Shown one piece after another: positions 1,008 to 1,383 of a stretch of DNA of 21,195 bases. Both the position numbers and the translations under genes were made by a program. The stretch is from a virus (Duplodnaviria; Heunggongvirae; Uroviricota; Caudoviricetes), in the IMG/VR virus record IMGVR_UViG_2534681940_000040. One strand, given 5' to 3'. Numbering within the stretch: the stretch's first letter is position 1; every line of letters starts with the position of its first letter. Below the pieces are notes generated by a model. It saw nothing but the letters and a program-made list of their open reading frames with translations, was not told where the DNA came from and did not search any database.

Positions 1008-1313
1008 TTACTTATCACATAAATCAAATGCAGCCTTAGTGACATCCCCCAGACTCTTTTTTAACCCTGGGGCGGCATCATTATCTAGCCAAAATGGATT
1101 ATTGTTATCTAACGGTAACGCACCAAATGTTTTACCTTTTATTCGAGCCAAACCTGTAAGTGCATATAACTTATTATCGTCAAAATTCATCACATAAGGA
1201 TTACCATCAAGACACTGTAATTGAACCTCATCAGTATTAAATGGCCATACCCCATTGAAACTCTCACGTTCAATAGTTTTAAAAGGCATTGCGACGGCGG
1301 AAAAAGAAAACAT
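1008..1313 (-). CDS. small Cys-containing exported-type protein; 5' end apparently frame-disrupted
   Basis: 101-aa ORF from ATG 1313 with no SD. An SD-proximal ATG at 1354 (GAGGT, 6 nt spacing) opens a different frame that stops after 8 codons. The in-frame upstream codons encode a signal-peptide-like stretch (KKVQLLVTFLSMFSFSAVA) but contain no start codon. Confidence 0.5.
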   Translation of the reverse strand: MFSFSAVAMPFKTIERESFNGVWPFNTDEVQLQCLDGNPYVMNFDDNKLYALTGLARIKGKTFGALPLDNNNPFWLDNDAAPGLKKSLGDVTKAAFDLCDK

Positions 1314-1383
1314 AGATAAAAAAGTAACTAATAGTTGAACCTTTTTACTTTCATATCATTACCTCAATTTAGCTCAAGTAAGA

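Follow-up and report, generated by a model that had tools for sequence, protein, structure and literature searches.

In phage P2, the integrase gene (int) and the repressor gene C share a transcript, and int is translated poorly. A second point of reference for the locus described here is the YebY/DUF2511 protein family. Escherichia coli YebY, the product of the third gene of the yobA-yebZ-yebY (AZY) operon, is exclusively periplasmic and forms a Cys48-Cys113 disulfide, the loss of which abolishes expression; both the location and the disulfide were shown experimentally (PMC8689200). Signal peptides are predicted for the vast majority of YebY family members, and MlbQ, a lantibiotic self-resistance lipoprotein of Microbispora (PDB 2MVO), shares the Pfam family, the fold, and the disulfide position and is also extracytoplasmic (PMC8689200).

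Here, we analyzed a 21,195-nt stretch of viral DNA (IMG/VR record IMGVR_UViG_2534681940_000040; referred to as the window), in which a YebY-like gene lies immediately upstream of int. According to a preliminary description of this DNA, the signal-peptide region of the YebY-like gene is broken by the loss of one base from an A tract (A5 instead of A6), for which a sequencing error, a decay mutation, or a slippage-prone switch that also lowers int translation had been proposed. We document the sequence of the broken start, the family to which the gene belongs, the rarity of the A5 form, and the pattern of errors in the assembly from which the window derives. Judged from the assemblies compared below, A5 is very probably a homopolymer undercall in a draft assembly, and the tract in the organism itself is most likely A6.

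A degraded P2-like prophage with a YebY-like gene upstream of int

The window covers part of a P2-like (Peduoviridae) prophage, now degraded, that is located between yecA and a tRNA cluster in E. coli O157:H7. Position 1 corresponds to the final base of the int stop codon. Insertions of IS629 and IS30 interrupt the prophage, its gpD gene is truncated, its tape measure gene is frameshifted, and the head and lysis module is absent. The leftward (minus-strand) operon begins with an HTH repressor-like gene (134 aa; positions 2454-2050), followed by a gene for an Flk_N-domain protein with a hydrophobic C terminus (216 aa; 2034-1384; PF27202 in orthologues; phrog_5825), the YebY-like gene (1354-1008), and int (1002-1), which encodes an intact tyrosine integrase of 333 aa with Int_N and Phage_integrase domains. 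The same gene order was found in Klebsiella, Citrobacter, and Serratia prophages, and a shuffled order was found in Erwinia. Flk_N-domain proteins (about 209 to 216 aa) and YebY-like proteins travel together, as a conserved and apparently envelope-directed cargo pair, in the repressor-int interval of P2-like prophages from five genera. The operon, consisting of the repressor, the Flk_N-like protein, the predicted periplasmic YebY-like protein, and an int gene devoid of a Shine-Dalgarno (SD) sequence, is a candidate lysogenic-conversion module. A PADLOC search with the YebY-like and Flk_N-like proteins returned no match, and the family of the former is labeled "unknown function" in PHROGs.

Several features were observed at the other end of the window. 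The segment that separates the tail sheath gene from the truncated gpD gene contains an additional A at position 18497 (plus strand), outside any homopolymer (CGTTCATCCCG, versus CGTTCTCCCG in the complete O157:H7 genome PNUSAE019785); the alignment with FRIK944 also has one gap in this segment. An IS629/IS1203-type element lies precisely at the junction of the truncated gpD gene and IS30 (18743-20053 and 20050-21195, plus strand). A query across the junction (18694-18793) was covered by 16 complete E. coli genomes, and those inspected covered it as two joined pieces only. In related O157:H7 genomes, an IS629 copy is located inside IS30 or inside the sheath gene.

The start of the YebY-like gene is out of frame

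On the minus strand, the SD motif GAGGT (1365-1361; -6.9 kcal/mol for pairing with the anti-SD) is followed, after a gap of 6 nt, by an ATG (1354-1352). Translation from this codon reads ATG AAA GTA AAA AGG TTC AAC TAT TAG and ends after 8 codons at a premature TAG (1330-1328), which is met solely owing to the A5 call: one A is absent from the run at 1346-1342, and the frame shifts past codon 4. The adjacent frame contains the long ORF (1313-1008; 101 aa; TAA at 1010-1008). It opens past TGA 1358-1356 and has no start codon ahead of ATG 1313-1311, where anti-SD pairing was undetectable (0 kcal/mol), compared with -6.9 kcal/mol at the site preceding ATG 1354. On re-reading the window, the SD, the 8-codon reading, the adjacent-frame ORF, and the A5 run all matched their preliminary description.

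The insertion of a single A into the run yields a 115-aa protein beginning with MKVKKVQLLVTFLSMFSFSAVAMPFK, in which MKVKKVQLLVTFLSMFSFSAVA directly precedes MPFK. The YebY-like gene (1354-1008) thereby changes from 347 nt, as written in the window, to 348 nt. The restored protein is exactly WP_000865208.1 of O157:H7 genomes. In A6 genomes, the upstream ATG is the annotated start of a 348-nt coding sequence (WP_000865208.1 or WP_000865207.1), and complete O157:H7 genomes name the product of this coding sequence (WP_000865208.1) a "DUF2511 domain-containing protein." The ATG at 1313-1311, which has no SD, corresponds to Met15 of the full-length protein and is the fallback start from which gene callers obtain the 101-aa product.

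The restored protein is an ordinary, already annotated member of the known YebY/DUF2511 family. It matches PF10709 with 28.4 bits (curated cutoff, 21) over positions 2 to 87 of the 87 profile positions, phrog_2950 with an E value of 8.7e-40 over residues 3 to 114, and the E. coli YebY sequence (PDB 7N0J) with an E value of 4.2e-6. Homologs of 113 to 118 aa with 58 to 72% identity are encoded in Citrobacter, Klebsiella, Serratia, Scandinavium, and Erwinia. Across 14 aligned sequences, Cys48 and Cys113 never vary, and both align to the cysteines of YebY. The N termini of the homologs are all Lys rich, with a hydrophobic core and a small-x-Ala motif immediately ahead of a conserved PF(K/Q). Because the restored N terminus aligns with the N termini of all homologs, the relationship between the A6 frame and the signal peptide is no chance resemblance.

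With A6, the first 22 codons (1354-1290) encode a predicted signal peptide consisting of an n-region, MKVKK, with a charge of +3, a 13-residue hydrophobic h-region, VQLLVTFLSMFSF, and a c-region, SAVA, with an A-V-A motif and predicted cleavage ahead of M23-P-F-K; the localization of the family (PMC8689200) is in line with this prediction. With A5, as the window is written, these codons are not read in frame. At the sequence level, hundreds of A6 relatives and the signal peptides of homologs in five genera bear out the A6 reconstruction and the predicted Sec signal peptide, including its A-x-A site, that had been anticipated. A product starting at Met15 would have just 8 residues ahead of the cleavage site and would lack the charged n-region; such a product probably would not be exported and would likely be unstable. 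The signal-peptide region contains a second homopolymer, a T6 run (1323-1318, minus strand), which is intact in the window; other E. coli lineages have T5 or T7 at this site.

A6 is the norm among relatives

We examined the length of the tract in complete E. coli genomes carrying the locus. With an 80-nt query, only E. coli UTAK-2 matched exactly, and the remaining genomes spanned 81 nt; alignment located the extra base of these relatives in the A run. Because the 80-nt query might hide A5 alleles carrying a SNP, the census was repeated with 43- to 46-nt queries able to seed solely across the tract. The tract was A6 in 505 of the 506 locus-bearing genomes and A5 in one (UTAK-2), and A7 was found in none. 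In IMG/VR, 28 contigs contain the A6 string and none contains the A5 string. A variable-length pattern found A6 in 10/10 metagenome contigs and gave zero matches in a scan of species-representative genomes. A6 is therefore the norm in complete genomes, viral contigs, and metagenome contigs alike, which answers the call in the preliminary description for a comparison of tract length among relatives.

A5 also occurs in a few other records. Sequence identity between UTAK-2 and the window is only about 98%, so the A5 of UTAK-2 is independent of that in the window. Its sister isolate UTAK-4 has A6, and the A5 of UTAK-2 is likely another homopolymer miscall. These two cattle isolates from one project appear to be one gap apart over the approximately 4 kb compared with the window, and UTAK-2 carries a unique 101-aa PGAP accession (WP_347941090.1). 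A5 is also present in the record of phage 520873 (NC_049344.1) and in one further draft (L062). In NC_049344.1, int is annotated as two coding sequences, the DUF4761 gene is short, and the YebY-like gene is unannotated and was recovered by tblastn in three pieces; given the split int gene and the fragmented YebY-like match, this record is full of frameshifts.

The A run itself is poorly conserved among orthologs. The corresponding gene starts in Klebsiella (ATGCTCAGCAAG), Serratia (ATGCTTAATAAA), and Erwinia (ATGAAACATCAT) contain no A run, and the Citrobacter ortholog has A8 at its start. In the normal A6 form, codons 3 to 5 (GTA AAA AAG; window positions 1348-1340, minus strand) include the heptamer A-AAA-AAG, whose register matches that of the -1 slippery site of dnaX, and the -1 frame reaches a TAA about 20 codons on. 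The heptamer probably arises incidentally from the Lys codons of the n-region.

Homopolymer contractions in the source assembly

Contig AIFM01000030.1 (GCA_000249415.2) of the E. coli DEC3F draft assembly (L059) matches the window with 100.000% identity across 11,313 bases, including all three of the contractions described below. This contig, in which the protein is named ECDEC3F_2874, is the source of the window or is identical in sequence to that source.

Alignment with two complete O157:H7 genomes, FRIK944 and PNUSAE019785, showed that the window lacks a single base at three places, each within an A/T run of at least 6 bases, and revealed only 1 SNP relative to FRIK944 over 17.4 kb. The compared stretch contains 36 such runs, which account for approximately 1.3% of the sequence. 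The contractions are A6 to A5 at 1342-1346 (the tract in the YebY-like gene), A8 to A7 at 2981-2987 (plus strand), and A6 to A5 at 10417-10421 (plus strand). The second breaks a DUF4761-family gene (start, ATG at 2978) past codon 3, and restoring the base gives an annotated 116-aa protein; the tract is A8 in 508 of 509 complete genomes and A7 in one, which is not the genome with A5 at the first tract. The third frameshifts the last ~9 codons of a ParR-like (Plasmid_stab_B) gene downstream of parM; here, all 551 complete genomes have A6 and none has the short allele. Restoration of A6 in the YebY-like gene and of A8 in the DUF4761 gene gives exactly the proteins annotated elsewhere.

The DEC3F draft was further compared with two sister drafts of the same project, L057 and L058, which are 2 to 3 SNPs away from it (L057, 2 SNPs). 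(The DEC drafts were presumably generated by pyrosequencing.) Relative to complete genomes, L057, L058, and the DEC3F draft have 1, 3, and 4 indels, respectively, over 12.8 kb, along with 1 to 4 SNPs (1 SNP in DEC3F). All eight indels are -1 changes in A/T runs of 6 to 8. At the three tracts of the window, L057 has A6, A8, and A6, and L058 has A6 at the first tract, both of the other contractions, and a contraction of its own (A7 to A6 at window position 4092). Because L057 shares one deletion with DEC3F and L058 shares two, the deletions fit no single tree of these drafts. As far as can be read from assembled sequences, recurrent indels of this kind, which are contractions only, are confined to homopolymers, and do not appear in over 500 independent genomes, bear the hallmark of homopolymer undercalling. 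Their rate extrapolates to about a thousand such frameshifts per genome, and real mutation is thus not a credible source of them.

Truncated records and apparently genuine frameshift alleles elsewhere

Database records list the exact 101-aa protein for 182 contigs. This number was considered as possible evidence for a real allele and rejected as such, as the ten contigs inspected were a mixture of lesions (A5, A7, T5, T7, and the loss of one G from a GG pair) and start-site miscalls on intact A6 genes; in 3 of the 10, an intact gene had merely been annotated from the internal ATG. The sample is biased toward N-terminal lesions because the query was the exact 101-aa product. A7 was seen in one of these records (L063).

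Some of the other lesions look like real, clonally inherited pseudogene alleles. A T5 allele of the 1323-1318 run, accompanied by a nearby A-to-T SNP, is present in three complete genomes (O114:H49 strain 90-9280, ETEC-2264, and LR882978) and in several drafts. The T5 genomes come from separate projects, their YebY-like gene is flagged "frameshifted" by PGAP, and their int genes are intact and identical. A T7 allele with a G-to-T SNP is found in contig L060 and at five similar places in drafts of the Pathogen Detection type. The T5 allele appears to be inherited in an ETEC O114:H49-type lineage and the T7 allele in another lineage; contigs carrying one or the other are among L056, L060, L061, L067, and L068. 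In the complete genome of the O55:H7 strain DEC5E (NZ_CP038383.1, 1454-1530), A6 is intact and one G of the GG pair is lost (AAAAAAGTTC), which leads to the same early stop and to a 101-aa annotation (WP_000490856.1). This lesion was considered as an allele of the O55:H7 lineage, which was ruled out since it is private to DEC5E among RefSeq complete genomes. Genuine pseudogenization of the nonessential YebY-like gene thus occurs, but it does not rescue the A5 of the window.

int lacks its own SD and may be translationally coupled

The int ATG (1002-1000, minus strand) is located 5 nt (CTAAA; 1007-1003) past the TAA of the YebY-like gene (1010-1008), and the best upstream pairing with the anti-SD is only -1.0 kcal/mol. 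The lack of an SD and the 5-nt distance that had been pointed out for int were thus read directly from the TAA-CTAAA-ATG junction, and the same arrangement is conserved in other genera. Across six loci representing five genera, the anti-SD duplex of int ranges from 0 to -3.2 kcal/mol. The YebY-like gene has an SD in every case (-4 to -9.3 kcal/mol), and most of the other operon genes have values of -4 to -12 kcal/mol, except for the repressor start with just -3.3 kcal/mol. In the relatives, int starts 4 to 5 nt past the upstream stop codon (4, 5, and 4 nt) or, in Erwinia, overlaps the upstream gene by 4 nt.

With no SD and a start 5 nt past the stop codon of the YebY-like gene, int probably depends on the ribosomes that terminate there, and translational coupling through termination-reinitiation is a reasonable reading of this junction. 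If A5 were real, ribosomes starting at ATG 1354 would halt 326 nt short of int, with a lower level of int translation as the expected consequence. A literature search on the translation or coupling of P2 int returned nothing usable.

Possible origins of the A5 tract

Of the three explanations in the preliminary description, the sequencing error is strongly supported for this window, where it is favored by the other private -1 homopolymer deletions of the draft. The decay mutation, in the form of a real frameshift fixed in DEC3F as the YebY-like gene of an already degraded prophage decays, is unlikely here, even though it describes what has happened in other lineages (the T5 genomes). It would leave an 8-residue peptide and at most a little of a cytoplasmic, probably unstable 101-aa product, and fewer ribosomes would reach int. 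The visible decay of the prophage (IS629, IS30, truncated gpD, frameshifted tape measure gene, and missing head and lysis module) would suit such a history, as would the apparently genuine N-terminal frameshifts found elsewhere (T5 in three complete genomes from separate projects and the lost G in DEC5E), and the two contractions common to L058 and L059 could in principle reflect shared ancestry. However, the draft contains three further private -1 homopolymer deletions in 12.8 kb against 1 SNP, the near-identical L057 (2 SNPs away) has full-length runs at all three tracts, like lesions form a tree-incompatible patchwork across the sister drafts, and the extrapolated load of about a thousand such indels per genome argues against mutation. 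A reading in which the 101-aa cytoplasmic protein starting at ATG 1313 is the true product, with the upstream ATG and the signal-peptide-like sequence coincidental, is almost certainly wrong. PGAP or older pipelines do annotate 101 aa in some records, even where the tract is A6 (L057, L058, and L065), but that ATG has no SD and GAGGT stands at an ideal spacing ahead of ATG 1354, the PHROG profile reaches from residue 3 to residue 114, and the family is periplasmic and disulfide bonded (PMC8689200). Homologs starting at the downstream ATG without a signal peptide, a case that the preliminary description had set against its own proposal, were looked for; all homologs, down to 58% identity, extend N-terminally with a signal peptide.

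The proposal of a slippage-prone switch fares worse than that of decay, the tract being essentially invariant at A6 and unconserved in orthologs. As a contingency (phase-variation) tract, the run would toggle the export of the YebY-like protein through A6/A5 slippage and, via coupling, would modulate int and prophage stability. Length changes in several independent records at both the A run (A5 and A7) and the T6 run (T5 and T7), together with the position of the gene immediately upstream of an SD-less int, lend themselves to this idea, and the A5 of UTAK-2, phage 520873, and L062 could mean a natural slippage hot spot. Phase-variable homopolymers in bacteria are usually longer than 6 nt, which is the length of this run. 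The run is also absent from the Klebsiella, Serratia, and Erwinia orthologs, being simply the Lys codons of the n-region; most variant records come from error-prone drafts or from long-read assemblies that contain further frameshifts; and the uniformity of A6 (505/506 complete genomes, 28/28 viral contigs, and 10/10 metagenome contigs, with A7 in no complete genome) makes phase variation extremely improbable. A combination of the two ideas, in which A5 is real in DEC3F and the A6 and T6 runs are natural hot spots that repeatedly switch export off, is very unlikely. Were it correct, ribosomes would stop 326 nt upstream of the SD-less int, with less integrase and a locked prophage as the outcome, and the A-AAA-AGG of the A5 form, in which a rare Arg codon follows a slippery Lys codon, could permit a low level of -1 slippage that yields full-length protein.

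We therefore favor an undercall of A6. With A6 in the real DNA, a 115-aa YebY/DUF2511 protein would be translated from ATG 1354 behind the GAGGT SD, exported by Sec, and cleaved past AVA22, and it would be expected to fold in the periplasm with a Cys48-Cys113 disulfide. As the third gene of the lysogeny operon, the YebY-like gene would probably also deliver the terminating ribosomes that reinitiate at int. The three apparent pseudogenes of the window (the YebY-like, DUF4761, and ParR-like genes) would then be artefacts of one draft and no sign of decay or regulation. The main value of this observation is in quality control: from records of this kind, some of which are only start-site miscalls, the 101-aa truncated protein has been propagated into protein databases.

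Comparison with known systems

The indels of the drafts resemble homopolymer-length errors of flow-based or long-read sequencing in draft assemblies: all are contractions, all fall in A/T runs of 6 to 8, and they outnumber SNPs. The resemblance extends to the distribution of the lesions, with assemblies from the same project differing in the subsets that they carry and independent assemblies being free of them.

The prophage protein and E. coli YebY have in common the Pfam family, a length of 113 to 115 aa, both cysteines (48 and 113), and, once A6 is restored, a predicted Sec-type signal peptide, although the match of the prophage protein to the family is weak (28 to 30 bits). Unlike yebY in the AZY operon, the prophage gene is located between a gene for an Flk_N-like membrane protein and int in a P2-like lysogeny operon, with no adjoining copC or copD homologs. 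MlbQ, compared here by description, differs in its lipoprotein signal peptide and long linker; in the prophage protein, the predicted site is a plain A-x-A site for signal peptidase I, and there is no lipobox cysteine. In the P2-like repressor-int operons of E. coli, Klebsiella, Citrobacter, Serratia, and Erwinia, int is the last gene, lacks an SD, and abuts or overlaps the preceding gene. At the locus described here, two cargo genes, encoding the Flk_N-like and YebY-like proteins, separate the repressor from int, whereas the Erwinia int abuts another gene.
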